Source: a virus
Taxonomy: Duplodnaviria; Caudoviricetes
Length of the DNA stretch: 61,490 nt
IMG/VR virus record: IMGVR_UViG_3300035665_000036
Coordinates: 1 to 61,490 of that record
Strand: one strand, 5' to 3'
Shown in pieces: positions 1 to 16,704 of this stretch. The translations under genes were made by a program, and so were the position numbers. The notes below the pieces were generated by a model that was not told the origin of the DNA, searched no databases, and saw nothing but the letters and a program-made list of their open reading frames with translations. Each line of letters starts with the position of its first letter. Position 1 is the stretch's first letter.

Positions 1-414
1 CACAATTTCTTTACGAGCCATTTCTACAGCTTTTTCATTTCTGAATTGATAACTTGACAAGGCAGATTGAACATCTCGATCACGAGTGAGTTCTACATTC
101 CGTCTTTCCAACGCTTCTTTCTCAGCTTTGATTTCAGCTAATTGTAACTCATAAGCTTCTTTGTGTTTACCTTCATCTTGTAAACGTTGTAATTCTGCTT
201 CTTTTTCTTTTTGTTTGTAAGTGGCAAGTTCTTTTAACACATCGTCTCTTGCACCGTATGCTTTATCTAACTTACCTTTAATGTCTTTGAGACTTTCCTC
301 CAACCGTTCTTGTACAAGTTTTTCAATTAAATCTTTTTCAGAATCAGTGTTGCCAGTGGTTTTATCATCAACATTTGTATTTTCTGGATCTGTATTATCA
401 GTGTTTGTAGTCAT
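1..414 (-). CDS. Probable capsid scaffolding protein (runs off the window edge; not in the ORF track)
   Basis: My translation from ATG 414: MTTNTDNTDPENTNVDDKTTGNTDSEKDLIEKLVQERLEESLKDIKGKLDKAYGARDD... It has an acidic N-terminus and coiled-coil character, an AAGGT RBS, follows portal-MuF, and has its own promoter motif. Confidence 0.7.
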   Translation of the reverse strand, partial: MTTNTDNTDPENTNVDDKTTGNTDSEKDLIEKLVQERLEESLKDIKGKLDKAYGARDDVLKELATYKQKEKEAELQRLQDEGKHKEAYELQLAEIKAEKEALERRNVELTRDRDVQSALSSYQFRNEKAVEMARKEIV

Positions 415-512
415 TGTTTTACCTTGAGTACGACTCGTTATGAGAAAAATACAATTTTTCTCTTGGAATTCATTTAGTATAATTTTGTATTTAATTACAA
501 CTTCTATTATAC

Positions 513-528
513 GGGTTAATTTAACGGG
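513..528 (-). promoter_or_regulatory. Class B phage promoter-like motif CCCGTTAAATTAACCC (copy 1)
   Basis: Exact 16-mer present 5 times, always at a gene boundary and in the same orientation. This copy lies between the MuF-RNAP stop and the scaffold gene. Confidence 0.8.
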
Positions 529-533
529 TTTCG

Positions 534-3500
534 TTAACCTACTCCGTACCATCCGTAATCATTTTTGAAATCTGAAGGAACTTCTTTTACAATGTCTTCT
601 TTCAAAAGAATATCAGACTCTTTAAGAACCTTTCCTCCGACAACAGACCTACCTGCAATCGGAATCAAACCGATGTCTATTGCTTCGTTCAGATACTGAT
701 CGTAAAGTTCTTGAGGTAAACCTCTTGCCCTCATCTCATCCAGAGTAGACACTATAACATTTCTGTCCAGTGTTTTTGCATAGATTTTTCTCAAAGCATT
801 TCTGGCATTCAACATATCAGCTGCATTTGCAAAGAAAGCGTCATGAATAGTGCTCGTGGGAATGTTATTTTCCCTTCCCCATAGATGAAAATTTTTAACA
901 ATTGTCGCGTCGTTAGAATGGTTCCCGTTAACTGCAAAGGCAGTACGCGCTCTTGTTGAATCGGCAATATCATTTATTTTACCGTCCTTATTCATCATCT
1001 CTTCCCACCAAGTTACTTCAGTTTTTTGAGGTACTTGCAATATATTGGTGGTCCACTCGCCTTGTTTATTCTTATAAAAAAGCCTTTCTTCAAATTGTTG
1101 TGTGAAATTTTGTTCGATCACTTTACCATCAAAATTAACCCAAGGAACGTTTGTCCATGATTTAGGCATTTTATTGGCACTCAGTAATTCCACTTCAAAC
1201 ACATCTTGCTCTTGAATAAACTTACCTTTTAGTAAATTAGAAGGTGTTGGCAATGCAGGTCTTAAGAAAGACAATTTAAAGTATTTACCACCTGTACGTC
1301 TTGTTTCCGGTGTTGCTGCACCATAAAGAATGTCATGTAGGTTACTATTTGGCTTATAAAAACTTAAGCGTTTCAAAGCTTTCTCACTTAAAGATTCTCC
1401 AGCTTTTAAGCCTAAGATTCTGCTAAGTGTATCTGGCAGAACATACCCTTTCTTTTTACTGCCAAACACTTTTTCTCTCACAATTGCATTCCAATCAAAA
1501 GCAGCTGTGGATGGCTTTGCATTATTCAGATAGTCTTCTGCAAGTCTGCCAAAGAACTTTGTAAAGTCTTTTAAGATAGGTACTTGCTCTCTCAGATGTT
1601 CGCTCATTATTTTTGCAATATCTTTAAAATCACCTGGAGTGACAATCCTTTCATAATTTAGAGAAAGTTTCTCCACAAGATCTTTTGTCTTAGGCTCCAA
1701 GAAATAAAGCTGATCTAAAATCTCATCACCTGGATCTAAACCTTTATTAAAGATGTCTTTAACGTTTTCTCTAAGTGCTCTTAGTTCATCTGCAGTCACT
1801 TGATCAAACTTATCGTACCTTGCAATACGAGCTGATATCTCATTGAGTACAGTTTCACGATCTGAAGCCTTAACAACTAACGTATCCTTATCTTTGCCAA
1901 GGACTTTTGATAATTTACCTTCTACATTAAGTGTGCCAGTCCTTTCACCAGCACCATAGAACGTAACCATATTTTGCGCCTTGGCAGCCTTACGCAAATC
2001 TTTCTCTGTAAGGCCTAGCTTTTCGTTGATTACTTTGAATCGCGGATCGTTGAATGTTGAAGCTGCAATCTCATCATACAATCTTCGCTTTTGATTTGTA
2101 GGTACTACATTTGACAACTCAGCAAGCTGTTTGTTACGGGTGGTCAACGCGATAATTTGGGCACCAGATGATGACGCATCTTGTTCGAGAGCTAAGGATA
2201 TTTTGTAATTACGAAGTTTTTCTAAGTTCTGAGAAGAATATGGATCAACACTTGTGATCTTTTTCCAGTTCCACCCATATAACTCTGCCTCATTGTTTCC
2301 ATAAGTGTATTTAAAAGGTTTTTCAATAGCAGCGCCAACCTGAATTTCACCGAGCAGCTCTACCTCCACAGGCTCCGTTACCCATTTTTCGTTTGTAATA
2401 TCTACATCAGGTACTTGAGTCTTTGTAGGATTTGTGAATTTAGTATCACTAGGTGCTTTATACACGTATAGCTTTTTACCTTTTAAATTCATTGACATTG
2501 CCTTTAATGCTGAATCAATATCACCTGCGAATGAAATTCTTTTTGTTGTATTATCTTCAAATCCTTGCTTAGTTAAAAAGTTAGAAGGTATACGGGGTGT
2601 GAATTTTGTATCTGTAAGTGGTACTGTGCTTATATGAAACAATTCGCCTCTGTCTGGAAAATTGCCTGCAGTCTTTTTGAGATAGTTATCAATCTTAGCT
2701 TGCTCTATGGCAAACCTGAAAAATTTACCCAGTTCTTCACCTTCAATCATATGTGTTATGTCAGCTTCAAGGATCGCTCTGATATCTGCAGGCTTCTTTG
2801 ATAACATCAAATTACCAATTCTGACAATTTCAGGTCTCCACTTTTCAGCAACCTTTTGTCTTCCAGTGATTGTGAGTGAATTATATTTACCTTCAAACTC
2901 ATCACTGAGACCACCTAAGAAAGCACCTATTTGATCTTGGAAATCTTTGAATTCTTCTGGACTGAAATTCTTTGCTTCTGCTGTATTGAGGAACGGTCTA
3001 AACGTCTCTCCAGATTGTGGTCCGATAAGACCTCTGTCATATATCCTTGCTCGATGATCGATAAAAGGATGATTTGAAAAAGAGCGTCCATTAGCTCGTA
3101 ACCACTGCATAGCTTTAAAGCGCTCATAAGCATCACCACGAGATGCGATATACTTTCTGTACTCATTACGCTCATCATAGAACTGAGCTTTTCCTCGATC
3201 ATCTTTGAAGTAGAGTAATTTATCAATGAAATCATAAAAGTCTTCATCCACTTTGTATTTTGTCTTAGATGCCCATGTCAACGCATCCACCATATTCTTG
3301 TCAATAAACTCTTCAGGAAATTCGCTGAAGCTTGAAGATGAAGTGATTGGAATTCTTGTGTCTTCCAAACCCAATATGCCTCTATCCATCCAGTAAGTTT
3401 TATAACCTTCTCTAAATAATAATCGATTATCATCTCTTGTTACGCTTACACGTAAGCCTAAATCTACTTTACGGTTTAGTCGGGAGTACTCTTGTATACG

Positions 3501-5630
3501 TGGATCTGTGACCCTTATATTATACGACATTGTATCATAATATGGACCAAAATAAGCGCCACTCACACGGCTTTTCATTCTGCGTTTTTGAATACCAAAT
3601 GGTTCAACTTCAAAGAATTTATCAACCTTTTTGCTCTCAAGTATTTTCATGCCAAGATCAAACCACTGACGTCTCCAACCATTTAGGTTTGCCATGTTGT
3701 AAAGATCTCTGCCTAACATTACAGCAAATTGATCTCTGTCTGGACTGTCAGCCAAACTTAACCTGTGAGCAAATCTCAAGTAAAATTGATGCAAGTCATC
3801 TTCAGATAATCTGCTTCTGATTTTAATTGGAATTTGAGGATCTAAAAATGTTCTTAATTCATTAGCGATCTTAGGAGCAACTTTATCTTCCCATTGATTT
3901 CTTGCTCTTATATTTTTATAAAAGTTATCGTGCAAATCATCAAGTTGAGTAGCGCCTAAAACAGGATCAATATAATTGTCTTGAAGTAATCGTTTCATCA
4001 CATCTGTATCTTTTCGCAGTTGTGTTTCAATTGCGTCAGAGACGTTCATCACATCAAATTTTATTTGTGACTGAACAACGGCTTTGAAATTACCCCAGAC
4101 TTCTTTATTATCTCGATATCTGCCAAATACAATTCTCAAGTTATCTGCAATTACGGCTCTTTCATTAACACTCATTGTGTCTGATAACTCGTTCACAAAC
4201 TTGGTTATGAATTCCTTATCTCTGTCCAAGAGCTTATCGCTGTCTTTAATTAATTGTAAATTGTTATTGAGTACATAAGTGTTTGGTTGATAAAACCGGA
4301 CGTCTTCATATCTACCTGTGGCAGGATTGAATTTAATCTGGTCTTCTCTCGGTGCAGAGGTTAGCATCCTATTTCTAGTAGCTTTCTTATTGTGAAGGAG
4401 AGTGCCACGATAATTAGTATAAGAGAGTGTTCCTTCAAGCTCTTTAGTTTGTAATATGTAGTAATCAAGTAATGTTTTCCTCAATTTATCATTCTGAATA
4501 AAATCATCCGGTGTGGTTGCCCATAACTGCATTGCATCTAATTTCGCCTTAGCGTTGGCAAACTTAATTGTGTCGCCATTTAACTCATAAGTAGAATCTG
4601 TTGCGGCTCTCAGTTGTTTAACGCCTAGACTCTCGCCCTTATAATTCACAAATTGATCCACAGTCAGTTTACCTGTGTTCAAAAGATCAACTTTTTGATA
4701 ATCACCTAAATGTTTAAATTGAGTATCTCTCGGTTGTCGCATGAGCCAATCATTATAGCTTTCTTTCAGTGGCGTTTGACCATCATAATAGGCAATTTGC
4801 TCTTTTGTTAAACCTTCTAAGTTTCTTCGTCTCACTTGAGCAACACCTTCTAGCTTAGAAATGTCATCCCAGGATTTAAAAACTGGAACTGTTGTGGAGC
4901 GGCAATTAAAGTGCGCAGGAGGCAGATGCTCCGTGTCCCCCATGTCATAGATATGCCCATCGCGGTGCGCACACAGAGGCGTGGTCCTCGCGTCCAGAAC
5001 GGCCACATACTGCCACCCTCTGAGTGCCTTTTCGTTGGCACGGTAAACAGCGTGGTCAACCTGAGCGTGGACACTGGTGATTGCAGTAACCACTAATGAT
5101 CTAGACTGCATTCTGGTTATATTGTGAATGTTGCCTTTACGAATTTCTAAAGCAATTTCATTTGTTGTCTTACCTTCAGAAATACCTTTGCGAATCAAGG
5201 CTTCAATTCTTTTCTTTTCAGAAGTACTCACACCTGACCAACCAGAAGCAAGTGTTCTATTTTCAAACAACGGTTTTTCAAGAACAATCTCTTCTGATAT
5301 ACGTCTTTGCGGTCTTTCTGTGCGCCAGATTTTACCCATCGTTGTTTCGACAGTTTGATACGCGAAAGATGCTTGATCTGCTGCGAAGTCTAGTAAAGAA
5401 CGCTTTGATGTATTATGAGCTTCACGATAAGTACGTAATAGCTCTTTATCCAAAGCGTCTTTGAATTTCTTTGATTTTAAATCGGAGGAACCTACCAACT
5501 TGTCTAACCTAATAACGTGGCCATCAATGATTACTTCAATCTTATCATTGACACCTTTCTCAAATAAGCGTATCATTGCCGCTCTGTCTAGTGCTTTGTC
5601 ATATATTTCAGTATTTACATTAATGGCCAT
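534..5630 (-). CDS. MuF/SPP1 gp7-like head morphogenesis protein fused to a T7-family DNA-directed RNA polymerase (putative virion RNAP) with an internal ART-like insertion
   Basis: MuF motifs: WQYVAVLDARTTPLC...PPAHFNCRS (C243) and ESYNDWLMRQP. RNAP motifs: IDHRARIY...PQSGE (D858), motif A EQDASSSGAQ (D1151), motif B RKAAKAQNMVTFYG, NGNHSNDA, motif C TIHDAF (H1596/D1597). Located after the portal gene. Confidence 0.92.
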   Translation of the reverse strand: MAINVNTEIYDKALDRAAMIRLFEKGVNDKIEVIIDGHVIRLDKLVGSSDLKSKKFKDALDKELLRTYREAHNTSKRSLLDFAADQASFAYQTVETTMGKIWRTERPQRRISEEIVLEKPLFENRTLASGWSGVSTSEKKRIEALIRKGISEGKTTNEIALEIRKGNIHNITRMQSRSLVVTAITSVHAQVDHAVYRANEKALRGWQYVAVLDARTTPLCAHRDGHIYDMGDTEHLPPAHFNCRSTTVPVFKSWDDISKLEGVAQVRRRNLEGLTKEQIAYYDGQTPLKESYNDWLMRQPRDTQFKHLGDYQKVDLLNTGKLTVDQFVNYKGESLGVKQLRAATDSTYELNGDTIKFANAKAKLDAMQLWATTPDDFIQNDKLRKTLLDYYILQTKELEGTLSYTNYRGTLLHNKKATRNRMLTSAPREDQIKFNPATGRYEDVRFYQPNTYVLNNNLQLIKDSDKLLDRDKEFITKFVNELSDTMSVNERAVIADNLRIVFGRYRDNKEVWGNFKAVVQSQIKFDVMNVSDAIETQLRKDTDVMKRLLQDNYIDPVLGATQLDDLHDNFYKNIRARNQWEDKVAPKIANELRTFLDPQIPIKIRSRLSEDDLHQFYLRFAHRLSLADSPDRDQFAVMLGRDLYNMANLNGWRRQWFDLGMKILESKKVDKFFEVEPFGIQKRRMKSRVSGAYFGPYYDTMSYNIRVTDPRIQEYSRLNRKVDLGLRVSVTRDDNRLLFREGYKTYWMDRGILGLEDTRIPITSSSSFSEFPEEFIDKNMVDALTWASKTKYKVDEDFYDFIDKLLYFKDDRGKAQFYDERNEYRKYIASRGDAYERFKAMQWLRANGRSFSNHPFIDHRARIYDRGLIGPQSGETFRPFLNTAEAKNFSPEEFKDFQDQIGAFLGGLSDEFEGKYNSLTITGRQKVAEKWRPEIVRIGNLMLSKKPADIRAILEADITHMIEGEELGKFFRFAIEQAKIDNYLKKTAGNFPDRGELFHISTVPLTDTKFTPRIPSNFLTKQGFEDNTTKRISFAGDIDSALKAMSMNLKGKKLYVYKAPSDTKFTNPTKTQVPDVDITNEKWVTEPVEVELLGEIQVGAAIEKPFKYTYGNNEAELYGWNWKKITSVDPYSSQNLEKLRNYKISLALEQDASSSGAQIIALTTRNKQLAELSNVVPTNQKRRLYDEIAASTFNDPRFKVINEKLGLTEKDLRKAAKAQNMVTFYGAGERTGTLNVEGKLSKVLGKDKDTLVVKASDRETVLNEISARIARYDKFDQVTADELRALRENVKDIFNKGLDPGDEILDQLYFLEPKTKDLVEKLSLNYERIVTPGDFKDIAKIMSEHLREQVPILKDFTKFFGRLAEDYLNNAKPSTAAFDWNAIVREKVFGSKKKGYVLPDTLSRILGLKAGESLSEKALKRLSFYKPNSNLHDILYGAATPETRRTGGKYFKLSFLRPALPTPSNLLKGKFIQEQDVFEVELLSANKMPKSWTNVPWVNFDGKVIEQNFTQQFEERLFYKNKQGEWTTNILQVPQKTEVTWWEEMMNKDGKINDIADSTRARTAFAVNGNHSNDATIVKNFHLWGRENNIPTSTIHDAFFANAADMLNARNALRKIYAKTLDRNVIVSTLDEMRARGLPQELYDQYLNEAIDIGLIPIAGRSVVGGKVLKESDILLKEDIVKEVPSDFKNDYGWYGVG

Positions 5631-5642
5631 TTATTTATCTCT

Positions 5643-5906
5643 TTATTTTAAAAATCCAACAGAACCAATTCTGCGAGTTGCTGTACCTAGTTTATAACCT
5701 GTTTTACCCATTCCAAGTTTTTCATACTTAGCTGTTGCAGTTGCTCTGTGCTCTGGTCTGTGCAAAACACCGGAAATAAAACCACCGGTATTGGCTAACA
5801 TAATTTTTCTTACGCGCTTCCCGCTAGCATTTTTGTTACCTTTTAATGCAGTGGATAATTTTGCATTTTTAATACTTTTACCATGACCTGTGAATCTTGT
5901 GTTCAT
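5643..5906 (-). CDS. Small, very basic hypothetical protein
   Basis: 87-aa K/R/G-rich ORF with an RBS, translationally coupled to the upstream ORF. Confidence 0.6.
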   Translation of the reverse strand: MNTRFTGHGKSIKNAKLSTALKGNKNASGKRVRKIMLANTGGFISGVLHRPEHRATATAKYEKLGMGKTGYKLGTATRRIGSVGFLK

Positions 5907-6046
5907 TTCTTTTTCCTCTTTTGTTTAGTATGTTTAGCCACATCTAACGCAATTGCAATTGCCTGTTTTTGTGGTTTACCTACTTTCATCTCGGTAGAAA
6001 TATTCTCAGAGACAGTTTTCTTTGAATAACCTTTCTTAAGGGGCAT
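5903..6046 (-). CDS. Small basic phage protein, 47 aa (MPLKKGYSKKTVSENISTEMKVGKPQKQAIAIAL...), below the ORF-track cutoff
   Basis: My translation. It overlaps the portal stop and has an ATGA overlap with the next gene. It resembles small MPLKKG..KQA.AIAL proteins of phage head modules. Confidence 0.75.
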   Translation of the reverse strand: MPLKKGYSKKTVSENISTEMKVGKPQKQAIAIALDVAKHTKQKRKKK

Positions 6047-7610
6047 TATTTGCTCCTATTGCGTTTGCATTTTCTGCATTCTGATCTGTTGGCATCAACA
6101 ATTTATCGGCAGTTATCTCTTGAATAGCTTCCTCATCATTGTAATCAGGTGACACCAAATCATTTTGCTTAAGTAAAACCAACCAAACAGATCTCGGCAA
6201 TAAGCCTTGTTGATACCATTCGGTTGCCAATCGTAACCAATCAGCTCCAATTGGAACAGGGTTGAAATCTGTGGACAATGAAAACTCTATTTCAGAAACT
6301 CTTAATTGCAAGTCATAACGCCAATTCACCATAAACACAATTACTTGTGCCATGATATTACTCACTTTATTATTCAAGGTACCCAACTGCGCTGTCTGAG
6401 CTGCATTTCTGATTTCCAATGCAACGCCTGATTGTTCAGTTTCAGGACTTAACATTCGGATACCCAGTTTAGCCATCTCTTCAATACTGGAAGCAATTGC
6501 TCTGTCCATGTCTTGAAGTGCTGCTGTTGGAGTTTCCAAGACCTTGGCATCATCACCTTGTCTCAAACGCAGCCATGTACCTAAACCACCACTCACAATT
6601 TCATCAAATTCTTCGTCAGTCATGTCTGAAATAATCACTGGTGTATAGGTTGCAGCGCCATAAAGTAAATGATTACGTCTGCTGATTTTGTTGTATAGAC
6701 TCACTTCTTTGTCAATAATGGCGGATAACATTGGTTCGACTAAGTCTATTGAACCATTTAGGGGCCAAGCTGGTATTATATTAATTGGCTCCCCATTTGC
6801 CAAAATATTACTGAAAGTATCAATCAAATCAAATTTAATTGCATTATTTGCAATTTCAACATTTTGCTTAGTTCCTCCGATTACAGGAACACTGGTGGTA
6901 TTCGAAGATCTTTGGAATTTTCTTATCTGATATTTACTTTCAACAAGTTCATGGACGTATACAGTGTCTTTGAATGTTGGATGAAACTCATTCTCATCAT
7001 AAGATTCTTCAAACACTCTGACAATTACCCTGTCCAAAATTGCCTTGCCATACTGATTCTCGCTAACTCTCCAGTTCACAACCTGTTCAGCTTTTCTGAG
7101 CACTGGATATGGTTTAAAGTTTAACAATTCTTCTTTTGTGTATGATTCTGCATTTTCCACAACAGGATAATCCACAAAAACCCATGCCCTAGATGTTTGC
7201 ACTTCTTCCCAAAGAGCTGCATCTAAAAATGCAGCCAAAGGAGAATCATCCTTGCCAAATTCGTTTATGATCCAATCATAAGCTTCTTCAGGAATGCCAT
7301 CAGGTAACTCTAATAAAGGCTTCTTTCTGAGCAATCCACCAATAATCATTTTTGCAAATTGTGCAGTGATACCTGGTAATTCAGCTTCAGCTTTGTAAAA
7401 TTTGTATTGAGCTTGACTCATACTTGGTGAAAACGGTATCAAAAGATTCTTGAATGTTAATACATCAATATTCGCATCAAAGTCTTTTACATACTGTTCA
7501 CCACTGCACACAGCTCTGCATTTTTGCCATAAAGGGCTCAATGACTCATAAGCTGCATTTGGATCTGCGACTGTTTTAACAGCCGATTGTGCTGCATTTG
7601 TTACTGCCAT
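6036..7610 (-). CDS. Portal protein (DUF4055-like)
   Basis: 524 aa, located between terL and MuF. The motifs QYKFYKAEAELPG, SRAWVFVDYP and EQSGVALEIR are typical of this portal type. Confidence 0.85.
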   Translation of the reverse strand: MAVTNAAQSAVKTVADPNAAYESLSPLWQKCRAVCSGEQYVKDFDANIDVLTFKNLLIPFSPSMSQAQYKFYKAEAELPGITAQFAKMIIGGLLRKKPLLELPDGIPEEAYDWIINEFGKDDSPLAAFLDAALWEEVQTSRAWVFVDYPVVENAESYTKEELLNFKPYPVLRKAEQVVNWRVSENQYGKAILDRVIVRVFEESYDENEFHPTFKDTVYVHELVESKYQIRKFQRSSNTTSVPVIGGTKQNVEIANNAIKFDLIDTFSNILANGEPINIIPAWPLNGSIDLVEPMLSAIIDKEVSLYNKISRRNHLLYGAATYTPVIISDMTDEEFDEIVSGGLGTWLRLRQGDDAKVLETPTAALQDMDRAIASSIEEMAKLGIRMLSPETEQSGVALEIRNAAQTAQLGTLNNKVSNIMAQVIVFMVNWRYDLQLRVSEIEFSLSTDFNPVPIGADWLRLATEWYQQGLLPRSVWLVLLKQNDLVSPDYNDEEAIQEITADKLLMPTDQNAENANAIGANNAP

Positions 7611-7633
7611 TAGTCCTCCATTTCATTGCGCAA

Positions 7634-7864
7634 TTAAGCTCTTAATGCAATATTAAAATCTGCAACAGAACCTTCATAAGTTTCACCAGACAAGCTATTA
7701 CGAGCTTCAATAACACCATCTGCATCTGTTGGTTTGATCACCCAGTTTGATGGAACAGTGTCAATAAATTCAATCACAGTTTCTTGCAATTCAATCACAG
7801 GTTCTTGTACCGCAACTGCTTGTCTTACAGGAGCAGGTTTGTTAATTTTTGATTCATCAGCCAT
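7634..7864 (-). CDS. Hypothetical protein
   Basis: 76-aa ORF coupled to the endolysin. Confidence 0.55.
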   Translation of the reverse strand: MADESKINKPAPVRQAVAVQEPVIELQETVIEFIDTVPSNWVIKPTDADGVIEARNSLSGETYEGSVADFNIALRA

Positions 7865-8291
7865 AGCGTCTTTTTCCGTTTTTGTTAATTATTAAAGCTT
7901 CCATTCTGCATTTAGCGTCAGGAAAGTTTGGTACTGAGATATGAACCCAACGGTCATATTCTAAGATCAATTGATCATATTTTATATCTGATTCGAATAT
8001 TGCTTGCATAACCACACTGGCTTCAAGACCTTTCACTTTAAAGTCAGCCGCACAACCAAGCGTGTGTTGGCTATTTGGTTGGCCTTTCACTGCTCTATTC
8101 AATACTTCACAACGATAACCTGAAGAGATGATTATGGGCTTACTGACCAATACTCTTACTTCTTCAAGCTTGTGTGATGTTCTTTTTAAATTTTCAATTA
8201 TGAGCTCTGTAGGACTGTTATCAATTGACATCCTGATAGCTTCATCACTTTCTAAAAATTCTCTAAGTGTAAAATGTTCACTCAATTGCAT
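7857..8291 (-). CDS. Endolysin, peptidase M15A family
   Basis: LSEHFTLREF, ISSGYRC, SQHTLGCAADF and WVHIS zinc-peptidase motifs. Confidence 0.9.
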   Translation of the reverse strand: MQLSEHFTLREFLESDEAIRMSIDNSPTELIIENLKRTSHKLEEVRVLVSKPIIISSGYRCEVLNRAVKGQPNSQHTLGCAADFKVKGLEASVVMQAIFESDIKYDQLILEYDRWVHISVPNFPDAKCRMEALIINKNGKRRYG

Positions 8292-8299
8292 AATTATCC

Positions 8300-10375
8300 T
8301 TACCTGAAAAACATTAAAAAATTACTCACATTTGTGACAAGTGACCACAACCAACCTGTATTGTTACCACTATCCACATTTCCATTTGAAGTAAGTGCTC
8401 TCCACGTTGCTCCACCAGTCACATTGGTATCTTGCAATGTACAATAAGACAATTCAATCACTCCAGAAACCTTTGATATATTTGCTTTTGTTCCTGCTGT
8501 GCTGCTCTTAATGGTTATTTGATTTCCTGAAGTCCCAGCCAAGCCGAATATGCTTGAAATAATTGTGGTTACTGCTGCAGGAAAAATTACAATTGCAGGA
8601 GAGACACTATTGGAGATGCCATAAAAGGTATTGGCACCTGTTATTGTGAGATTACCTAAACCACCCTGATTAAGCAAACAATTGTAGGTTGAATTACCTC
8701 CAACAAATGTTTTAGCAGCCGCACTTGTCAGCGTAATTGTGCCCACTCCAGTCCCTGCCGTTGTTGTAAATCCAGCAGGTACAGCATTATTAAAAGCTGT
8801 TGTACCACTCAAAGCCAATGTTCCGCCATTGAACGTGATATTTTTTGTGCCTGCTGCTGTTGTAAAGGTAGTTCTGCTCATTTGGAAACCTGCCAAATTT
8901 AACGTACCATTGGTCAGAGTTATTGCTGCGTTACTGACACAATTACTGGCCAAAACAATTGTACTTGAAACTGCATTTATGTTAAAAGGTTGTGTCCAAT
9001 TTACTGTTCCAGAATTGATTGTTTGAGTTTTAGAGCGGCCTCCGAATGTAACCGTACTAGTACCTGTCAGCGTATTAGTTGGATTTAATATGACATTACC
9101 ATAGATAGTTGGCGCTGCTAAAAAGTTAAGTGCAAGGGGTCCTGGTAACACTGAGAAATCCAAAGTCCCTATATTATAGCTATAGTTAATCTCAAGGTTT
9201 GAAACATTGCTGGTAGATCGCACATTAATTGTGTCTTGAGCTAACGGAAAACTCTCACGTACAGGTGTAGCACTCGCTGTTGGACACCATGTAAGGCTAC
9301 TGTAGGTTATGCCTGCTGCAGTATTCCATAAATAAACAGTTTTAGCGGCTGGAAATGTTATACCAGTATTACCCCCACAATCACCCAACCTGGTTCCTGT
9401 CCATGCTGTTCCTGTATTATTTATGTTTATAAAATCTGCATCAGTCAGACTAACAGTAACAGCTGTAATTGTGTAAGTAGTGGTTACAGAGTTCGTTTTA
9501 AAAAAGAGTCTAGAAGAACCGAGAGTGGTTGGCGCAGAAGCTGTTAGCGTTCCCGTAATTGTTTGATTGCCTGAGAAGATTATGGAACTTATACCAACAG
9601 CGGCTCTTCCTTTAAAATATAGGTTTACAAATGTATTAACACCTGATATGGTTGCTGTTCCAATTGAGGATGCCATAAAATTAACAGTGCCATATGATTT
9701 TCCACCACCTGCAAAAGTGGGTGACGTACCCGTGAGTGTGAAAGTCGAAGAGCTAGCATTAAGAGTTCCGACCGTTGCACTGGCAGTCCAAGCAGTACCG
9801 CTTAAACCCAATGTAATCACTGATGTACCTAAATCTACAGTTTTTGCTGTGGTTGTTGTGAACTCTGCAGCACCTGCCATTGTTATATTAAAGTTTCCAG
9901 AATTAAAGCTGCCACCCGCTAATGATAAATTACTTGCGGTCAATGCCGAACCCAATGTCCAACCACCAGAAGCACTGTTGAAAACAACGTTTGTGTTTGT
10001 CAGTGTAACACCATTGGTGGTTACAGTATTCCCTGTTGTGGTTGCCAAAAAGCGAATGGTATTACCGCCAAATGAAGATATCGCAAAATTTGTCGAAGGA
10101 TTCACCCAGCTACCGTAAACATCTAAATATGACAGATTAGGCGTACTGAATGTCACTGAAAAGTCCATTGCACTTATTGTGATATTTTTACAACTTACCG
10201 TTGCTGCTAAGAAAGTTACTGTAAATGCTACTCCCGAATCAGAACCACTGTCAAATATAACATCGTCTGCCGAAGTGGGAACGCCTGCGCCTCCTGTGCC
10301 TCCAGATGTCAGTGACCAATGCGTATTTGTGGTATCCCAGTTTCCTGCACCGCCTACCCAATAATAAGTGGCCAT
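8300..10375 (-). CDS. Beta-helix-like virion fibre/adhesin protein
   Basis: 691 aa, T/G/S/N-rich. It begins YYWVGGAGNW...WSLTSGG.GGAGVPT.ADDVIFD and contains two internally similar halves. Confidence 0.6.
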   Translation of the reverse strand: MATYYWVGGAGNWDTTNTHWSLTSGGTGGAGVPTSADDVIFDSGSDSGVAFTVTFLAATVSCKNITISAMDFSVTFSTPNLSYLDVYGSWVNPSTNFAISSFGGNTIRFLATTTGNTVTTNGVTLTNTNVVFNSASGGWTLGSALTASNLSLAGGSFNSGNFNITMAGAAEFTTTTAKTVDLGTSVITLGLSGTAWTASATVGTLNASSSTFTLTGTSPTFAGGGKSYGTVNFMASSIGTATISGVNTFVNLYFKGRAAVGISSIIFSGNQTITGTLTASAPTTLGSSRLFFKTNSVTTTYTITAVTVSLTDADFININNTGTAWTGTRLGDCGGNTGITFPAAKTVYLWNTAAGITYSSLTWCPTASATPVRESFPLAQDTINVRSTSNVSNLEINYSYNIGTLDFSVLPGPLALNFLAAPTIYGNVILNPTNTLTGTSTVTFGGRSKTQTINSGTVNWTQPFNINAVSSTIVLASNCVSNAAITLTNGTLNLAGFQMSRTTFTTAAGTKNITFNGGTLALSGTTAFNNAVPAGFTTTAGTGVGTITLTSAAAKTFVGGNSTYNCLLNQGGLGNLTITGANTFYGISNSVSPAIVIFPAAVTTIISSIFGLAGTSGNQITIKSSTAGTKANISKVSGVIELSYCTLQDTNVTGGATWRALTSNGNVDSGNNTGWLWSLVTNVSNFLMFFR

Positions 10376-10545
10376 TATATCTCCTCATTGGTAGAATTGA
10401 TAAAGCTGAGCCAACTCAAATATCTAGCTTCTTTCATATTCTCTATGTCTGCTTCAGTGTAAGAATGATCTGAAGGTAAAATTATGGCGTCTCTGTAAGT
10501 ATTATCATCTCTGATAATTTCAAAAGAAATTGATATAGTCTCCAT
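10375..10545 (-). CDS. Small hypothetical protein (probable true start ATG 10545, METISISF...)
   Basis: AAGGA RBS upstream. This start avoids overlap with 10550..10918. Confidence 0.55.
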   Translation of the reverse strand: METISISFEIIRDDNTYRDAIILPSDHSYTEADIENMKEARYLSWLSFINSTNEEI

Positions 10546-10549
10546 CAGG

Positions 10550-10918
10550 TTATCCTTGTTGTGCAACAGCAACAACATCCCAAAATAGATCCATTGCATT
10601 GTATATACAACCGATATAAAGCGTTTTTCCTGCAACTGTTGTGGTTGGAAGTGTATTACCCACACCTCTATAGCCACCGGAAGCTGTTGTCCAAGTAATT
10701 GCTGCGGCAGTTCCATTATCTTCTAACTTAAGCAATAACTTTTGACCATCAGTGGGTGTACCTGAAGGAGTTGTCAGTGTTATTGCACCACTAATTCCTG
10801 TTAAGTTGAAATGGTCTGTTATTGCTGCGTTTGGTGCAATTGTCCCAGAAGTGGTTCCAGATGTTTCTGGTCTTATTTGTATGCCGTTCTTGGCTAAAAA
10901 TTTCTTCGCGGTGGCCAT
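10550..10918 (-). CDS. Small virion fibre-associated protein
   Basis: PSGTPTDGQKLLLKLEDNGT...WDVVAV is typical of fibre C-terminal-like domains. Its N-terminus (AKKFLAKNG) resembles that of the adjacent fibre (QKRFLATNG). Confidence 0.55.
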   Translation of the reverse strand: MATAKKFLAKNGIQIRPETSGTTSGTIAPNAAITDHFNLTGISGAITLTTPSGTPTDGQKLLLKLEDNGTAAAITWTTASGGYRGVGNTLPTTTVAGKTLYIGCIYNAMDLFWDVVAVAQQG

Positions 10919-10943
10919 AGTTCTCTATCCCATATGGTTATTG

Positions 10944-12797
10944 TTAAATATCAATTAAGGTTTTGATCAGTTTAAATGTGGTTGTTGCATTTGCAGGACT
11001 TGTTAATAAGCGTAAGTTACCTGCATTAATATCAGCATCAAATGTGGCTAAAGGTGCGCCTGTGTACATTTCACCGTAAGTGGTGATATACGCAGTTGTT
11101 CCATCATGCATAACATCAATTGTCACCATGTGATACGCGGTACCTGATGTGATTTGAACTTTGTAACTTGCCGCACGATATGTGGCAACTGCTTCAGAAC
11201 TTAACACTTGGTTTGCTGTTGTTGCAGAAGTCACTAAAGTTGCAGTGGCTATCTCACCGTGAGTTAACGGAACGTTTGTATTTGTAGCTGTACTCAATGC
11301 ATCTGTAATGCCATATCCAGCCAATGTTGTTGGATTTGTGCCGGATGTCACTAAGCCTTTAGCATTAATTGTGACAGATTTATAAGTACCTGCCGTTGCA
11401 ACAGTTGCTAAGGTTAATGCACTGGAACCAGCGGATGATGTAGCATCACCTGTGAAAGCAGGTAATCTAGCAGCGGCCAATGTTCCGGATCCAATATTTG
11501 TTGCATTAGTTGTATCAGTTGTTGCAGATGCAGCCAGACCGGATACAGCGCTAGAAGCAATCGCAATTGCTGTAGATGCGGCTGCAGTCAATTGACCTTG
11601 AGCATTTACTGTAAATGTGGCCACACTTGAAGCAGAGCCATAAGAAGTAGCAGTCACGGCAGTATTTGTGATACTTAATGTGTTGCCCGATTTGGTCAAC
11701 CCTGTACCAGCTGTAATTTGACCTGCGCCAGAGAATTGAACAAAAGTGATAGCTGTTGTACCTAATGTGCCACCTGCATCTGATGTACATAAAAATCCAT
11801 TGTCTGCTTGTGAGCCCTTTTCAACAAACACATAGGCACTTGGTACTTCTGACCAAACAGACATATCAGTGCTACGAGTCCATGCACCTGCCGCTACCAA
11901 ATAAATACCATTCTCTGCAGGTAATGTTTGGTTTTTGACAAGAACTCTGTCACCTGCAACTACAGCAATAGTATCAATTGTTTGTGGAGCAGATAATGTA
12001 ATATTTGCAGTGGTTGCTGCAACAACAGAGCCTTTAGGATCTAACCCTTGAACCAATGTATCTATTTCAGTCTTGGTATATGCATCTGTGATACCATAAC
12101 CTGAAATGGTTGTTGGATTGGTACCTCCAGTAACTAACCCTTTAGCATTAACTGTGACAGACTTGTAAGTACCTGCAGTAACACCTGAAGCTGCCAAGGT
12201 TGTGGCAACTGCACCCGCAACTGTTGTAATGTCACCTGTTAAAGCTGGCATACGAGCAGCAGGCAATGTGCCTGATGTGATTGCCGTTGCAGCAAGCGCA
12301 ATTGCTGTGTTTGATGCGGCTGTTATACGACCTTTACTGTCCACAGTAAATGTGGCAACAGCTGTGGCAGAACCATAATTACCTGTTGTCACAGCTGTAT
12401 CGGCCAAGGTTGTTGTGATACTTGTGCCGGTATCACCTGTGCCTGATAAATCACCTGACAATGTGACAGTGGTGCTGATTGCTGTATTCGAAGCACTTGT
12501 GATACGACCTTTTGAATCCACGGTCAGCGTTGGAATCTGATTGCCAGAGCCGTAAGTTCCAGCCGTCACGCCACTTAACGCTAAGGTAAGAACTGCAGAA
12601 CCTACTGATGATGATACATCGCCACCTGTAATAGCAGGTAATCTGGCTGCATCAAGTGTACCTGAACTTAAGTTTGTTGCATTTATCGAAAACGCCTTTG
12701 AAACGGCATCTTGAGCATTTACAGGATCTGACACATTCGTGATGGTTTTACTGTTTGCATCAAGACCATTTGTGGCTAAAAATCTTTTTTGTGCCAT
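10944..12797 (-). CDS. Tail fibre protein with internal repeats
   Basis: Repeats: TAGTY(G/K)S...TVDSKGRIT, NPTT(I/L)(S/A)GYGITDA x2, SGTL.AAR(L/M)PA.TG x3. Also contains a GDRVLVKNQT..AENGIY block. Confidence 0.8.
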   Translation of the reverse strand: MAQKRFLATNGLDANSKTITNVSDPVNAQDAVSKAFSINATNLSSGTLDAARLPAITGGDVSSSVGSAVLTLALSGVTAGTYGSGNQIPTLTVDSKGRITSASNTAISTTVTLSGDLSGTGDTGTSITTTLADTAVTTGNYGSATAVATFTVDSKGRITAASNTAIALAATAITSGTLPAARMPALTGDITTVAGAVATTLAASGVTAGTYKSVTVNAKGLVTGGTNPTTISGYGITDAYTKTEIDTLVQGLDPKGSVVAATTANITLSAPQTIDTIAVVAGDRVLVKNQTLPAENGIYLVAAGAWTRSTDMSVWSEVPSAYVFVEKGSQADNGFLCTSDAGGTLGTTAITFVQFSGAGQITAGTGLTKSGNTLSITNTAVTATSYGSASSVATFTVNAQGQLTAAASTAIAIASSAVSGLAASATTDTTNATNIGSGTLAAARLPAFTGDATSSAGSSALTLATVATAGTYKSVTINAKGLVTSGTNPTTLAGYGITDALSTATNTNVPLTHGEIATATLVTSATTANQVLSSEAVATYRAASYKVQITSGTAYHMVTIDVMHDGTTAYITTYGEMYTGAPLATFDADINAGNLRLLTSPANATTTFKLIKTLIDI

Positions 12798-12814
12798 TTA
12801 AATTTCCTTGTAAA

Positions 12815-13330
12815 TTAATTAGTTATCAATGTTCGTATCACTTTATAAGTGATATTTGCAAAAGGACAATCCACAATCAATTTCATTGTATTGTCTTGTA
12901 TTTCAAAATGATACTGACCAAGAGGTTCGTCTGTAGCCATCATAGCGTATTCAGTGCTGTGTATGGTTTCTCCATCGTGCAAAATCAACAACTCACACAC
13001 TTGTCTTCTACCGAAAGATGTTGCGTAAATAATATATTTTGCGACACCAAACTCTGTATGTTGAAATGTGTCTAAGACAGCTTCTCCTGTTGTATTTGAA
13101 GTAAATAATTTTGAAGAGAAGTTGCCATACTCTAACGGTAATTGAGGTTGAGGATACTCAGGATCAAACGCTCTACCTGATGGACCTTGCTTGGCAGAGA
13201 CTATTAAGACAGGCTTTGCTGTCTTAAGTTGTAAAACAACTCTGTCGGATTCTTTTGCAAGTATTGTACTTGTGGTTGTGACGTTTAAGCCACTGGAAGC
13301 TGTTTTTATATTGACATTTAAGATGCTCAT
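12815..13330 (-). CDS. Virion structural protein related to the fibre C-terminal domain
   Basis: AKYIIYAT...LILHDGETIHSTEY resembles the fibre C-terminus ASYKVQIT...VMHDGTTAYITTY. Confidence 0.55.
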   Translation of the reverse strand: MSILNVNIKTASSGLNVTTTSTILAKESDRVVLQLKTAKPVLIVSAKQGPSGRAFDPEYPQPQLPLEYGNFSSKLFTSNTTGEAVLDTFQHTEFGVAKYIIYATSFGRRQVCELLILHDGETIHSTEYAMMATDEPLGQYHFEIQDNTMKLIVDCPFANITYKVIRTLITN

Positions 13331-13701
13331 TAACGCTCCCTAAGTGTCACTGTACCTATTGCCAATGTGTTTACGAAGCCATTAAGTTCAGTTGTGACAA
13401 TACTCAGCTCGAATACACCTGCACCAAGACTTTGTGTCATTGCGCTAGTCACTTCAGACCGTATGTTATATCCATTAGGTATGTCGTGATTCAACTCTAC
13501 GGTTGGTTGCTGTAAGACAACGCCATTCTGTTTAATGGTCACTGCAACACCCCATCCAGCTAGATCATAAGGTATTCCTGTATCTTCATCGCCATAACCA
13601 AGCTCAATCAAAAGTGTATCACCGACAAACTCTTTATAGTGCAACACAGCTGTTTCGCTTTCTAATGTAGCTTCTGTGCTACTCGTTGCGGATCTGGCCA
13701 T
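13330..13701 (-). CDS. Hypothetical beta-rich structural protein (BppU N-terminal-like)
   Basis: VGDTLLIEL...PYDLAGW...GVFELSI...GTVTL pattern. Confidence 0.45.
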   Translation of the reverse strand: MARSATSSTEATLESETAVLHYKEFVGDTLLIELGYGDEDTGIPYDLAGWGVAVTIKQNGVVLQQPTVELNHDIPNGYNIRSEVTSAMTQSLGAGVFELSIVTTELNGFVNTLAIGTVTLRER

Positions 13702-14057
13702 TAATAACCTTCCTTGTCGGCCTTGCGATCAAGCTTACTTTCTATTGAATCTAGCTTCTTAAAAATAGCTTCACCAAGTTTACCGACATCTTCTTTCTTT
13801 GCGTATTTGTCAACTATTAAAAGTTCAAGATTTTCCAATTTTTCAAGCTTGCTTAAAATAACTTTAAGCACACTCTCCATTTCAGTTTTCTTTACGTAAT
13901 CGCTCGTCATGGTAATCTCCATACTGCTTATTTTAGCGGTTGTTTCTTTGTCCGCTTTTTGAAGATCTTTAAGACTAGCCCATACTTCCTTTAGTAGCCA
14001 ACCCCCGAAAAATGATACTATTCCAAGAAGAATATTTATATATTCTTGTGTGGACAT
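13701..14057 (-). CDS. Membrane-anchored coiled-coil protein (holin/antiholin-like)
   Basis: Single N-terminal TM segment (INILLGIVSFFGGWLL) and a duplicated Y(V/A)KK..L(E/D)K motif. Confidence 0.5.
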   Translation of the reverse strand: MSTQEYINILLGIVSFFGGWLLKEVWASLKDLQKADKETTAKISSMEITMTSDYVKKTEMESVLKVILSKLEKLENLELLIVDKYAKKEDVGKLGEAIFKKLDSIESKLDRKADKEGY

Positions 14058-14069
14058 AATATTCCCCTA

Positions 14070-15416
14070 TTAAAAATTAAAACCACGAGAAGTTCTTTTA
14101 CTTCCCGAATTTATTGGAAATAAGTATTCAACACCATACCTTATTCCGTCTGAAAAGTGCTCAATGCCCTCTGATTTATCAATCGTGGCGGTATCTGGAT
14201 TCTTATCAACCCACTTTGTACGTTCTAATGATTGTATCGTTCCTACACATCTAGGATGGATGTATATGTCGATATCTCCAGCGGCTGTCATTAATTTCTT
14301 ATTAACTGCAGCAACACTGTCCACTATCGGTGGAGCTTTAGGGTGAGCCAAACATTTAATACCATATGACTCAAGAATACTGAAATCTGTTCTACCTACA
14401 GCGGCAGAAGTCTTACGAGCCTTTCCTGAAGGATCAGGGTAAGCGAATATTCGGTGCCCTTTATACTTAGTACTTAAGGCTATGGCCAATGTTTCTGTGT
14501 CTGGGTGCCCTTTCATTTCATCTAAGAAATGCATTTGCTTGCCTCTGACAGCAAATATGGATGTGGCCTGTATACCAACGTTAAAGTCGATACACACATG
14601 TACATCCTCTCCTTTTTCTTGTCCTTGTGGTGCCAAAAAGTCTTCAAGATCATTTGTGATATGCTTTCTTCTGTCAAAGCAATAGAACACATTGTTACCT
14701 GAATCTGCAAATGAAGCTAAATACTCGGAAGCAAATTCAATTGGATCGATTGTGTGCTTGATACGCTCAATCTCGGCCACATCTAGATAAGGCGATTGTT
14801 TATAGTCATAGTGATATGACTTCCAATTCTTGTCTGTGGATTCATATGTGTGCATCTCATGAAAGAAGTTATAGCCTTTTGGTGTACTGATTATTAATGC
14901 TCTACCTGGAGCAGGGGCACCGTATGATAAAGCCCTTTCGTTTGACCACCTTGTGATAATACATGGTTGGATAACACCTTGCCATGCTTCTTTTGGGGAT
15001 ATCCCTTTCTTACATGAAGATACTTCATCCCATACAACAAAATACGCACCTTTACCTCTCATCCGTTCAACGGCTTCGTAAGATAGCAACCGGAGTTCCA
15101 CGTTATTCGGAAACACAAATCTACCCAAATCACGAGAAGACTTGATTGCCCAATGTTCAAGCCCCAAATCATAATTGAGTAACGGATAATAAATATCAGT
15201 CACCTGATCATAAGTTGGGGCTATAATATAAACGGTTTTGTTTGGTATATTTGCTCTCAATTGCAGCAGTTCTGCAATGGCAGTCACAGCAACAGTTGCA
15301 GCTAAATAAGACTTACCAAAACCACGAGAGCAACACATCACGGCAAATCTACATACTTGACCATAGAACAAATCTTCATACACTTCTGATTGTCCAGCAT
15401 GTAAATTAATGGCCAT
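14070..15416 (-). CDS. terL: Terminase large subunit
   Basis: Walker A CSRGFGKS, Walker B FVVWDE, coupling motif ISTPKG, nuclease residues IDFN and EHFSDGIRY. A GGAGG RBS precedes ATG 15416. Confidence 0.95.
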   Translation of the reverse strand: MAINLHAGQSEVYEDLFYGQVCRFAVMCCSRGFGKSYLAATVAVTAIAELLQLRANIPNKTVYIIAPTYDQVTDIYYPLLNYDLGLEHWAIKSSRDLGRFVFPNNVELRLLSYEAVERMRGKGAYFVVWDEVSSCKKGISPKEAWQGVIQPCIITRWSNERALSYGAPAPGRALIISTPKGYNFFHEMHTYESTDKNWKSYHYDYKQSPYLDVAEIERIKHTIDPIEFASEYLASFADSGNNVFYCFDRRKHITNDLEDFLAPQGQEKGEDVHVCIDFNVGIQATSIFAVRGKQMHFLDEMKGHPDTETLAIALSTKYKGHRIFAYPDPSGKARKTSAAVGRTDFSILESYGIKCLAHPKAPPIVDSVAAVNKKLMTAAGDIDIYIHPRCVGTIQSLERTKWVDKNPDTATIDKSEGIEHFSDGIRYGVEYLFPINSGSKRTSRGFNF

Positions 15417-15572
15417 CGAAATGATCCTCCACAAATTCACACTCAAACATTCTTCTATATTCCTTTTGATCTCTGATTAGCGTCTTCGGAGGCTCTGCTT
15501 TTGGAGGCCAAATAATGTCCTTGGGTTTTTCTTTCAGCTCGTTCAATTCATAAAACATAGATTCTCTTCTTG

Positions 15573-15767
15573 TCATTCGATTGTTCCTATGTGATTTGGA
15601 TACTCAAAGAATTTACTTTTTATATGGCCACCGTAGCTTATGTGCAAGACCACACCTTGTGGCGTGTCATAATACACATACACATCATTTACCGATTTTT
15701 CTTTTTTGATTGTGGTCAAAAGATTATCCACAAAAGTTTTCTTTGGATCATGCATCAAAGTCTCCAT
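15573..15767 (-). CDS. Hypothetical protein
   Basis: ORF track, on the coding strand, packed between neighbours. Confidence 0.4.
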   Translation of the reverse strand: METLMHDPKKTFVDNLLTTIKKEKSVNDVYVYYDTPQGVVLHISYGGHIKSKFFEYPNHIGTIE

Positions 15768-15999
15768 TAAGTAATCTATGCAGAAATGTGGTCACTTGAT
15801 AACAAATTTGTGCTTTCTCAGCAGATGTGGACCAATACATATCTTTACCATCTTTTGTTTTGGCAACAATCACAATGGACTTAATATTGTCTTGTTGTTT
15901 TACCACATCTTCAAGTATTTCTTTTGTTTCCACCAAAGCTGAAGGTAAATGTCTAATGTTTGAAGTCGTCATCATTACCACCAAAATAAAAGTAAACAC
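15748..15999 (-). CDS. Hypothetical protein
   Basis: ORF track, on the coding strand. Confidence 0.45.
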   Translation of the reverse strand: MFTFILVVMMTTSNIRHLPSALVETKEILEDVVKQQDNIKSIVIVAKTKDGKDMYWSTSAEKAQICYQVTTFLHRLLNGDFDA

Positions 16000-16049
16000 C
16001 TAGGTAAAAACTCAGTGCAAATACAATGTACGATATAAATAGTACATCA

Positions 16050-16499: not shown

Positions 16500-16584
16500 A
16501 CAAATGTACCTTTAATTTCATCAACTTAACAAAAAGCACATCCATTAGTACAAAGTGTCCTTCAAGAACACTAACGATTGTAAT

Positions 16585-16704
16585 TCAATCTCTCTTTTGT
16601 TTGTTTTAAACAATTAACACTGATTAAAGTGATTTATCATTAACAAACTCAATCTCTCTTTTGTTTGTTTTAAACAATTAACACTGATTAAAGTGATTTA
16701 TCAT
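16585..16704. repeat. Tandem direct repeat: two identical 56-nt copies, period 64
   Basis: TCAATCTCTCTTTTGTTTGTTTTAAACAATTAACACTGATTAAAGTGATTTATCAT at 16585-16640 and 16649-16704. Confidence 0.95.

Follow-up and report, generated by a model that had tools for sequence, protein, structure and literature searches.

A conserved fusion of a MuF-type head protein with a T7-type RNA polymerase core, a candidate virion-delivered polymerase of long-tailed phages

IMGVR_UViG_3300035665_000036 is a linear, metagenome-derived virus record (Duplodnaviria; Caudoviricetes) of 61,490 bases with a completeness estimate of 89%, and the window analysed here is that whole record. Its minus strand, which carries all of the long open reading frames (ORFs), encodes at 534-5630 (stop codon 534-536) a protein of 1698 amino acids (aa) in which a MuF/SPP1 gp7-type minor head protein, as judged by its family matches, is followed by the core of a T7-type single-subunit RNA polymerase (RNAP). 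The ORF is single and uninterrupted, as a first-pass annotation of this DNA had described it without naming the strand. Other phages have the fusion too, and a second, stand-alone RNAP is encoded elsewhere in the window. We think it probable that the fusion protein is made late, packed by way of its MuF module and ejected into the next cell, where it would start phage transcription independently of the host, with the stand-alone RNAP following it.

The fusion protein

The head-morphogenesis module occupies aa 1-576 (3903-5630, minus strand), which is the span covered by the PHROGs head morphogenesis family phrog_241 (E 5e-61). Within it lies the MuF/SPP1-gp7 core, aa 141-251 (4878-5210, minus strand), recognized both by Pfam Phage_Mu_F (PF04233; aa 141-247, E 1.1e-13, 52.3 bits with a cut-off of 29.6) and by NCBIfam phageSPP1_gp7 (TIGR01641; aa 142-251, 62.8 bits with a cut-off of 39.65), and the MuF signature is found in the translation as VLDARTTPLCAHRDGHIYDMGDTEHLPPAHFNCRS at aa ~211-245. 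These matches place the N-terminus in the MuF/SPP1 gp7 family of minor head proteins. A single-sequence PDB search with each half of the fusion protein gave no match.

The T7-type polymerase core extends over aa ~840-1698 (537-3113, minus strand) and is matched by Pfam RNA_pol (PF00940; E 9.1e-11, 41.7 bits with a cut-off of 22) and by the PHROGs RNA polymerase family phrog_414 (E 6e-18). When a core profile made of window aa 700-1698 and 26 full-length relatives (27 rows, 24-85% identity) was compared with the PDB, it matched T7 RNAP with E 1.2e-9 over four colinear stretches, and hhalign against T7 gp1 gave a probability of 97.7% (E 2.4e-12, 431 columns, T7 residues 397-877). With residues of the fusion protein counted by hand from the alignment, T7 D537 of motif A corresponds to D1151 (window 2178-2180), R627, K631, Y639 and G640 of motif B to R1213, K1217, Y1225 and G1226, H784 to H1571, and D812 of motif C to D1597 (window 840-842), and every one of these positions is invariant in 27 of 27 rows. 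The motifs read IDHRARIYDRG (D858), LEQDASSSGAQ (D1151), RKAAKAQNMVTFYG for motif B (R1213, K1217, Y1225, G1226), NGNHSNDA (H1571, D1574) and TIHDAFF (H1596, D1597) in the translation. In T7 RNAP it is Y639 that selects ribonucleoside triphosphates, and this tyrosine is kept here as Y1225. By these matches the core is a member of the T7-type single-subunit RNAP family.

Between the two modules lies a linker region (aa ~577-839; 3114-3902, minus strand) that is conserved among relatives and matches none of the known families; if a counterpart of the T7 N-terminal domain exists, this is where it would lie. No part of the fusion protein is better conserved than the polymerase core. In nearly all of the 26 relatives, the conservation of aa 1131-1375 and of aa 1491-1698 equals or exceeds that of the MuF core, and in one of them (P0004) the identities are 79% and 73% for these two segments and 71% for the MuF core. 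That the polymerase core is conserved at least as well as the MuF core argues for a working enzyme. The first-pass annotation had assigned the first ~350 aa to MuF and called the polymerase a complete T7-family RNAP with all of its catalytic motifs in order. The motifs are indeed all present and in that order, and the MuF signature and family assignment hold, but the capsid-protein part is ~576 aa long, going by the phrog_241 span, and completeness reaches no further than palm and fingers, which align to T7 with their catalytic residues, since no equivalent of the T7 N-terminal domain or thumb was detected.

Conservation of the fusion and its place in the head module

The polymerase part has 358 matches with E<=1e-3 among proteins of 933-2972 aa in a large protein collection. 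Among the best 120 of these, 113 carry both PF04233 and PF00940, six carry PF00940 only and are shorter (the two inspected, P0011 and P0080, begin mid-sequence), and one carries PF04233 only. No unfused full-length form was found among the 933-2972-aa matches, the shorter length band not having been searched, and a seemingly unfused protein of 785 aa (P0144) proved to lie within a 1504-aa ORF in its contig. The source names of the relatives range from "SPP1 gp7 family putative phage head morphogenesis protein" and "minor capsid protein" to "DNA-directed RNA polymerase [Flavobacterium sp.]". Among viral contigs, 154 loci encode a relative, and 80 loci were fetched; in these and other relatives the MuF core, the 576-aa module and the post-portal position are conserved down to 24% identity.

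A tblastn search of 50,697 phage records matched 1001 of them, almost all through the MuF part only, and at least 80% of the protein was covered in four records, namely EBPR siphovirus 1 (58% identity to the window protein), DSS3_VP1 (two records) and DSS3_PM1 (30-31% for both phages). DSS3_VP1 and DSS3_PM1 are cultured dU-DNA roseophages of the Naomviridae, with Ruegeria pomeroyi DSS-3 as host, and the fusion is present in both; the DSS3_VP1 protein YP_010105321 (NC_055826, fusion locus 6001-10392) carries both Pfam domains and is annotated only as "head morphogenesis". The homolog search that had been put forward as a check on the fusion thus recovers the same architecture from protein relatives and from cultured phages alike. 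Some relatives have an invaded fusion gene. In EBPR siphovirus 1 (L001, 6049-11422) gp47 holds MuF and the first polymerase part and gp49 the remaining polymerase, and between them stands gp48, which encodes an HNH endonuclease. The tblastn spans of the fusion gene in three further loci (L053, L055 and L084) are 0.9-1.9 kb longer than the query needs.

The gene stands where the first-pass annotation had put it, in the slot between portal and scaffold. Upstream is the portal protein gene (6036-7610, minus strand; phrog_145, E 2.5e-55), with an 87-aa ORF without family match in the gap (5643-5906, minus strand). Downstream is a scaffolding-protein homologue (1-414, minus strand; likely start Met 412-414) that is cut by the contig end. 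It is 47% identical (E 6e-35) to L024:12676-13359, which comes after the fusion gene in L024, a relative whose completeness is 98%, and which itself matches the head scaffolding family phrog_206. The order in L024 is portal, fusion, scaffold, major head protein and adaptor, with a major tail protein and then a tape measure farther along. In 17 fetched related loci, a fusion ORF of at least 1400 aa is immediately preceded by an ORF of portal size (506-532 aa), a count made without a tally of the fetched loci that are too short. A prohead protease was matched neither among the ten L024 head-module proteins scanned nor in the head module of the window. SPP1 is not known to have a prohead protease either, and the module here resembles the SPP1 type, set in a long-tailed phage.

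A second, stand-alone polymerase

A canonical T7-like RNAP gene lies at 40001-43795 on the minus strand in three coding pieces (43049-43795, 41823-42374 and 40001-41074), with matches to phrog_414 (E 9e-67 for the last piece, and 5e-8) and PF00940 (E 3.9e-44). Two group I introns in this gene (43097-42853 and 41874-41647, minus strand) match RF00028 Intron_gpI with 63.1 and 57.2 bits against a gathering threshold of 50; they came to light only when a short stretch was scanned with permissive filters, and a whole-window Rfam search at gathering thresholds gave none. Each is followed by an HNH homing-endonuclease ORF (42298-42819 and 41115-41642), and the second intron splits motif A of the stand-alone RNAP. 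The gene is also found in two separated frames in the relatives G001, G002 and G006.

The same pairing recurs. All seven near-complete relatives searched (95-100% complete) have a strong canonical RNAP frame along with a weak-scoring fused RNAP, and DSS3_VP1 has a stand-alone RNAP in a 735-aa frame (E 1.3e-82; record positions 43324-44556). The partial record of EBPR siphovirus 1 shows the fused RNAP only. Given a stand-alone RNAP in the window, in DSS3_VP1 and in seven of seven relatives, the fused copy is not the sole polymerase of these phages. It is also not a recent duplicate of the stand-alone enzyme, a possibility that we rejected because the best local match between the two is 26% identity over 153 aa and they fall in separate clades. 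In a 13-row tree, the stand-alone RNAPs of the window and of DSS3_VP1 group with T7 gp1 (support 100/100), and a branch of 3.4 substitutions per site separates this T7/stand-alone clade from nine fused cores; the placement of the N4 virion RNAP (vRNAP) in the tree is unreliable.

Two classes of promoter-like motif

The first of two T7-style classes of promoter-like motif, class I, is a 16-mer, CCCGTTAAATTAACCC on the coding strand, found at 513-528 (minus strand), 5 nt after the stop codon of the fusion gene. Exact copies also occur at 16850-16865, 23024-23039, 38088-38103 and 49690-49705. The five exact copies compare with 0.34 expected, an expectation that allows up to 3 mismatches, and all are gene-oriented and stand in or at the edge of intergenic gaps. 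Of the 80 related loci, 21 have the exact 16-mer shortly after the end of the fusion gene. Three of the seven near-complete relatives have four to seven class I copies each, always gene-oriented, with zero hits for a reversed-pattern control, and in one relative all four copies carry an identical single-base variant.

The copy at 16850 directly follows a strong hairpin and T-run terminator (16950-16910, 18-bp stem), and the pair (16850-16950, minus strand) would mark the start of a late operon of terminase, tail-fibre-like, endolysin, portal and fusion genes, as read from the gene order. The surrounding 549 nt (16500-17048) are free of genes and hold, in reading order, the terminator, the class I motif and two tandem 64-nt repeats (16582-16709, 97% identical); this gap is possibly an origin or a packaging-related site.

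Class II, GCGGAAAA-N3-GGTATCTTATATG on the coding strand, was found at 45127-45142 (minus strand) and in two other copies, at 47312-47327 and 49560-49575. The three window copies occur only in the 45-50 kb region of small ORFs upstream of the stand-alone RNAP gene, each some tens of bases upstream of a start codon. Gene-oriented copies occur in four relatives too, and over 10 copies in five genomes 12 contiguous bases are invariant. Each of the five genomes with class II has a copy on the strand of the stand-alone RNAP gene and 1.3-6 kb upstream of it, and several copies stand directly 3' of a GC hairpin and T-run. The class II sites share no hairpin of their own: their folds reach only -0.5 to -3.9 kcal/mol, and on the coding strand two of three are no better than shuffles. 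We therefore rejected N4-type hairpin promoters at these candidates, which form no conserved stable hairpin. Sigma-70-like sites in 1-17100 are no commoner than chance would give, 43 against 49.9 expected, a comparison to be read with the proviso that the host may use another consensus.

Predicted role of the fusion and alternative explanations

If the fusion works as we suggest, its MuF/SPP1-gp7 module would load it as a minor head protein into the procapsid at the portal, and its C-terminal ~860 residues would be an active T7-type single-subunit RNAP. It would be made late, from the operon predicted to start at the class I motif at 16850, and a few copies would be packed, probably uncleaved since no prohead protease was seen. 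The protein would then exit via portal and tail together with the DNA, and in the new cell the injected enzyme would transcribe the first genes without host RNAP. The likeliest start sites would be the class II motifs among the small ORFs at 45-50 kb, a region that precedes the stand-alone RNAP gene, and the stand-alone RNAP, once made, would serve the class I promoters before the replication, packaging and head genes. Virion delivery is backed circumstantially by the conservation of the fusion in hundreds of phage contigs with the polymerase core best conserved, by the second canonical RNAP in the early/middle region, by the two distinct conserved classes of promoter-like motif and by a head module without a detectable prohead protease, an enzyme that SPP1 is not known to have either. 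We also count in favor of the scheme the lack of an excess of sigma-70-like sites in 1-17100, and a domain inserted in the polymerase (described below), because it is common to multidomain proteins of the kind that PMC5512222 predicts to be injected.

Several points weigh against this scheme. Packaging and ejection, like polymerase activity itself, are things that we infer from sequence, and the pairing of each motif class with a polymerase is likewise deduced. Position is the sole basis for assigning class II to the fused RNAP; these sites could instead be read by the host RNAP or by the stand-alone RNAP, and a class I copy, that at 49690, also lies upstream of the class II copies. The class II core (up to 1 mismatch) is absent from all five of the more distant records (G003, G006, G007, DSS3_VP1 and EBPR siphovirus 1). 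Class I is absent from four of the seven near-complete relatives, and in a crude covariation comparison G001 turns out to be without it, with a stand-alone RNAP equal in similarity to the one in G002. Within the protein, the DxRGR motif reads DHRAR (IDHRARIY) where the consensus of relatives is IDxRGRxY, and aa ~577-840, the expected place of a promoter-binding N-terminal domain and a thumb like those of T7, match no Pfam family and are left unaligned to T7 by hhalign. In the literature, virion proteomics was looked for and found for no relative; the main text of the DSS3_VP1 paper (PMC8323127), in the portion available to us, contains none and has zero occurrences of "RNA polymerase", "RNAP" or "MuF".

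The DHRAR variant would also suit a polymerase part that is catalytically inactive, being no more than bulk, a DNA-binding module or a structural component of the head, as would the weak Pfam score of 41.7 bits against 146-272 bits for the stand-alone copies. Against this, 27 sequences without exception keep both catalytic Asp residues, the motif B Arg, Lys, Tyr and Gly and the His of NGNHS, and the core is the most conserved part of the protein, so that we hold a dead enzyme to be very improbable. A different possibility is that the enzyme is active and never delivered, being a third, intracellular polymerase of the late phase that MuF tethers to procapsids or portals, or from which a leftover MuF part is perhaps cut off after synthesis. 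A gene expressed with the late genes, as the operon predicts, and a class I motif placed directly after the fusion gene, before the scaffold and capsid genes, would both accord with such a role. It is nevertheless unlikely in our view: every complete genome examined already has an intracellular phage polymerase in the stand-alone RNAP, and a MuF core, 576-aa module and post-portal position kept down to 24% identity are unexpected for a vestige. Nor was a protease gene found in the head module, or an unfused full-length form seen (in matches that exclude the shorter length band), P0144 sitting in its 1504-aa ORF.

T7 RNAP and N4 vRNAP both pull in part of their genomes by transcription, and the fusion could be packed and ejected for such internalisation of the genome, or for making an RNA primer for replication, with the early messages left to host RNAP. 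The evidence for packaging would be identical to that for an injected polymerase of early genes, the enzyme would sit at the portal beside the DNA end, and the relatives include the dU-DNA phages DSS3_VP1 and DSS3_PM1 (PMC8323127, in the portion available), which may treat an incoming genome in an unusual way. The class II motif of the early region, however, looks like a promoter of a single-subunit RNAP and precedes coding genes, no sequence feature specific to priming was found, and pulling in DNA and making early messages are not mutually exclusive; a role confined to internalisation or priming seems quite unlikely to us. As for the fusion being an assembly chimera, in which metagenome mis-assembly joined two unrelated genes, the window does come from a metagenome-derived, linear and 89% complete record, but the same architecture appears in 113 of the best 120 protein clusters from several sources, in the 80 fetched viral loci and in two independently sequenced cultured phages, which effectively refutes this explanation. 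Early transcription by a polymerase delivered with the virion is the account that we prefer.

An inserted domain before motif A

Just before motif A, the polymerase is interrupted by an inserted domain of ~135 aa (aa ~991-1130; 2241-2660, minus strand) that matches phrog_5043, a family of unknown function, and has no match in Pfam, NCBIfam or the PDB. It is missing from about three-quarters of the aligned relatives, and in other relatives unrelated inserts occupy the same site in the polymerase. The domain also occurs as stand-alone proteins of 146-157 aa, at the N-termini of proteins and within proteins of ~2000 aa that carry GNAT, NUDIX, P-loop and SNF2-helicase domains, and many of the 703 matches in a representative protein search are due to it. 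Its invariant positions are a Ser, a Pro, an Asn, a Glu, an Arg, VPD, T-E-W, a Gly, a Tyr and a Trp. The ~2000-aa multidomain architecture is of the type termed polyvalent proteins, and predicted to be injected, by Iyer et al. 2017 (PMC5512222, in its accessible part).

Other features of the window

Reading along the minus strand, the genes up to the scaffold homologue are the terminase large subunit (14070-15446, minus strand), a tail-fibre-like protein, a 691-aa protein of unknown function, the endolysin (7857-8291, minus strand), the portal protein, the 87-aa ORF and the fusion. The window is without the capsid, connector, tail-tube and tape-measure genes that relatives have, which is consistent with its 89% completeness. 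A 2081-aa ORF (53946-60191, minus strand) with a weak Phage-tail_3 match and no PHROG match adjoins a distal tail protein gene (60781-61410) and presumably encodes a tail-tip or central-fibre protein. The ribonucleotide reductase gene (28195-30937, minus strand) is divided into two ORFs (29879-30937 and 28195-29067) with a LAGLIDADG homing-endonuclease ORF (29181-29804) between them. Within 47026-48065, a 50-nt repeat occurs four times, in two pairs 69 nt apart and with 60-78% identity to the reference copy, which probably reflects paralogous small early genes.

Megablast against the phage collection gave no match. A scan of genome contigs gave a single weak and irrelevant match and hence no clue to the host, and the only hint is the UniRef/NCBI label "Flavobacterium sp." on fragments of one protein cluster.

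Implications

If the proposed delivery is true, these phages would represent a further independent solution to polymerase injection, and the MuF head domain would be able to load an enzyme of ~130 kDa and not small toxins alone. Host-independent early transcription would then be common among environmental siphoviruses, and a polymerase brought in with the genome would be a plausible reason for the ability of dU-DNA roseophages to start infection. Databases call these fusion proteins merely "head morphogenesis" or "minor capsid protein". Cultured relatives exist in which the fusion can be tested, and if the motif assignments hold, the two enzymes and their motifs would make two compact polymerase/promoter pairs, each orthogonal to the other, that synthetic biology might be able to use.

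A broader picture can be drawn tentatively, and we regard it as doubtful in its entirety. The phages concerned would form a large group, long-tailed and for the most part uncultured, to which the abundant marine dU-DNA Naomviridae belong, and may run a host-independent cascade of two polymerases, in which a compact T7-type RNAP, MuF-loaded and injected, with its own 27-nt promoter class switches on an orthogonal T7-like RNAP with a different promoter class. A site in the palm of the injected RNAP might at the same time be a slot for interchangeable accessory domains common to giant, injected polyvalent proteins, in which case the RNAP would also deliver counter-defence modules.

Comparison with known systems

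N4-like podoviruses, crAss-like phages, jumbo phages and one Thermus siphovirus already provide examples of injected polymerases. Like the enzyme described here, the N4 virion RNAP (gp50, Schitoviridae) is a single-subunit polymerase that belongs to the T7 superfamily; the N4 capsid carries its RNAP, and the capsid here is predicted to do likewise. The N4 enzyme is ~3500 aa long and has ejection and encapsidation domains of its own at the N- and C-termini without MuF, whereas here a short T7-like enzyme is joined to MuF, and N4 is short-tailed, whereas the module here is of the long-tailed type, with the major tail protein and tape measure seen in L024. Early promoters of N4 are DNA hairpins, in contrast to the class II candidates, which have no conserved stable hairpin. 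Between the fused core and N4 mini-vRNAP the hhalign probability is 0.17%, no N4 vRNAP chain is among the PDB profile matches with E<=1, and the fusion protein has no match to phrog_2166. In N4, transcription by the virion RNAP is followed by a phage-encoded T7-like RNAPII for later genes (PMC4496689). A second phage RNAP, putatively for the next class of genes, is present here as in N4, which is a likeness of logic and not of membership.

T7 makes gp1 early, as a free protein, from messages that the host RNAP transcribes. The palm and fingers of gp1 align with the fused core (T7 residues 397-877) with all catalytic residues, and the putative promoters here are likewise short, conserved duplex motifs, but the fused cores lie far from the T7/stand-alone clade and an equivalent of the T7 N-terminal domain was undetected. 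For SPP1 gp7 and Mu F, the domain matches are above curated cut-offs, and the gene here likewise follows the portal and precedes the scaffold; ordinary MuF members are ~300-500 aa long and without polymerase, against 1698 aa for the fusion. SPP1 is, to our knowledge, the only phage for which gp7 is established to bind the portal and to be ejected (references 24-25 of PMC5512222).

Elsewhere, MuF is fused to polymorphic toxins, ADP-ribosyltransferase, RelA/SpoT and RNase cargo (accessible parts of PMC5512222, PMC7302621 and PMC11806420), and those same parts make no mention of an RNA polymerase as cargo. These MuF-effector fusions likewise have MuF at the N-terminus and a variable C-terminal enzyme that is thought, in the parts of those sources available, to be delivered with the DNA. 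Their cargo is a small toxin or host-modifying enzyme, whereas here it is a transcription enzyme of ~1100 aa that would act on the phage genome. We considered and rejected membership in the MuF polymorphic toxins or polyvalent proteins: MuF here carries a polymerase, a scaffold gene comes next downstream, and only the inserted domain is common to polyvalent-type proteins.

No description of a MuF-RNA polymerase fusion was found in the literature searched, from which most subscription journals and supplements fell outside scope. The words "RNA polymerase", "RNAP", "transcription" and "virion" do not appear at all in a 2025 paper on dU-DNA enzymes, nor do "RNA polymerase", "RNAP" and "MuF" in a 2025 single-particle study of Naomiviridae.

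The Thermus phage P23-45 has a virion RNAP, gp96, fused to the tape measure, and a non-virion RNAP, gp64, and the virion RNAP transcribes pre-early genes that include the gene of the non-virion RNAP (PMC10770324, in the part available); the word "MuF" is absent from the main text of that paper. P23-45 thus likewise has a polymerase fused to a structural protein that leaves the virion, as is predicted here. The P23-45 enzymes are two-barrel RNAPs with the tape measure as carrier, whereas here the enzyme is of the T7 type and the carrier is the portal-associated MuF. The fused polymerase belongs to neither the N4 nor the P23-45 polymerase family, and the fusion is a real, conserved and apparently undescribed variant of a known strategy. 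New here are the two polymerases per phage, the two motif classes and an inserted domain common to giant polyvalent-type proteins.

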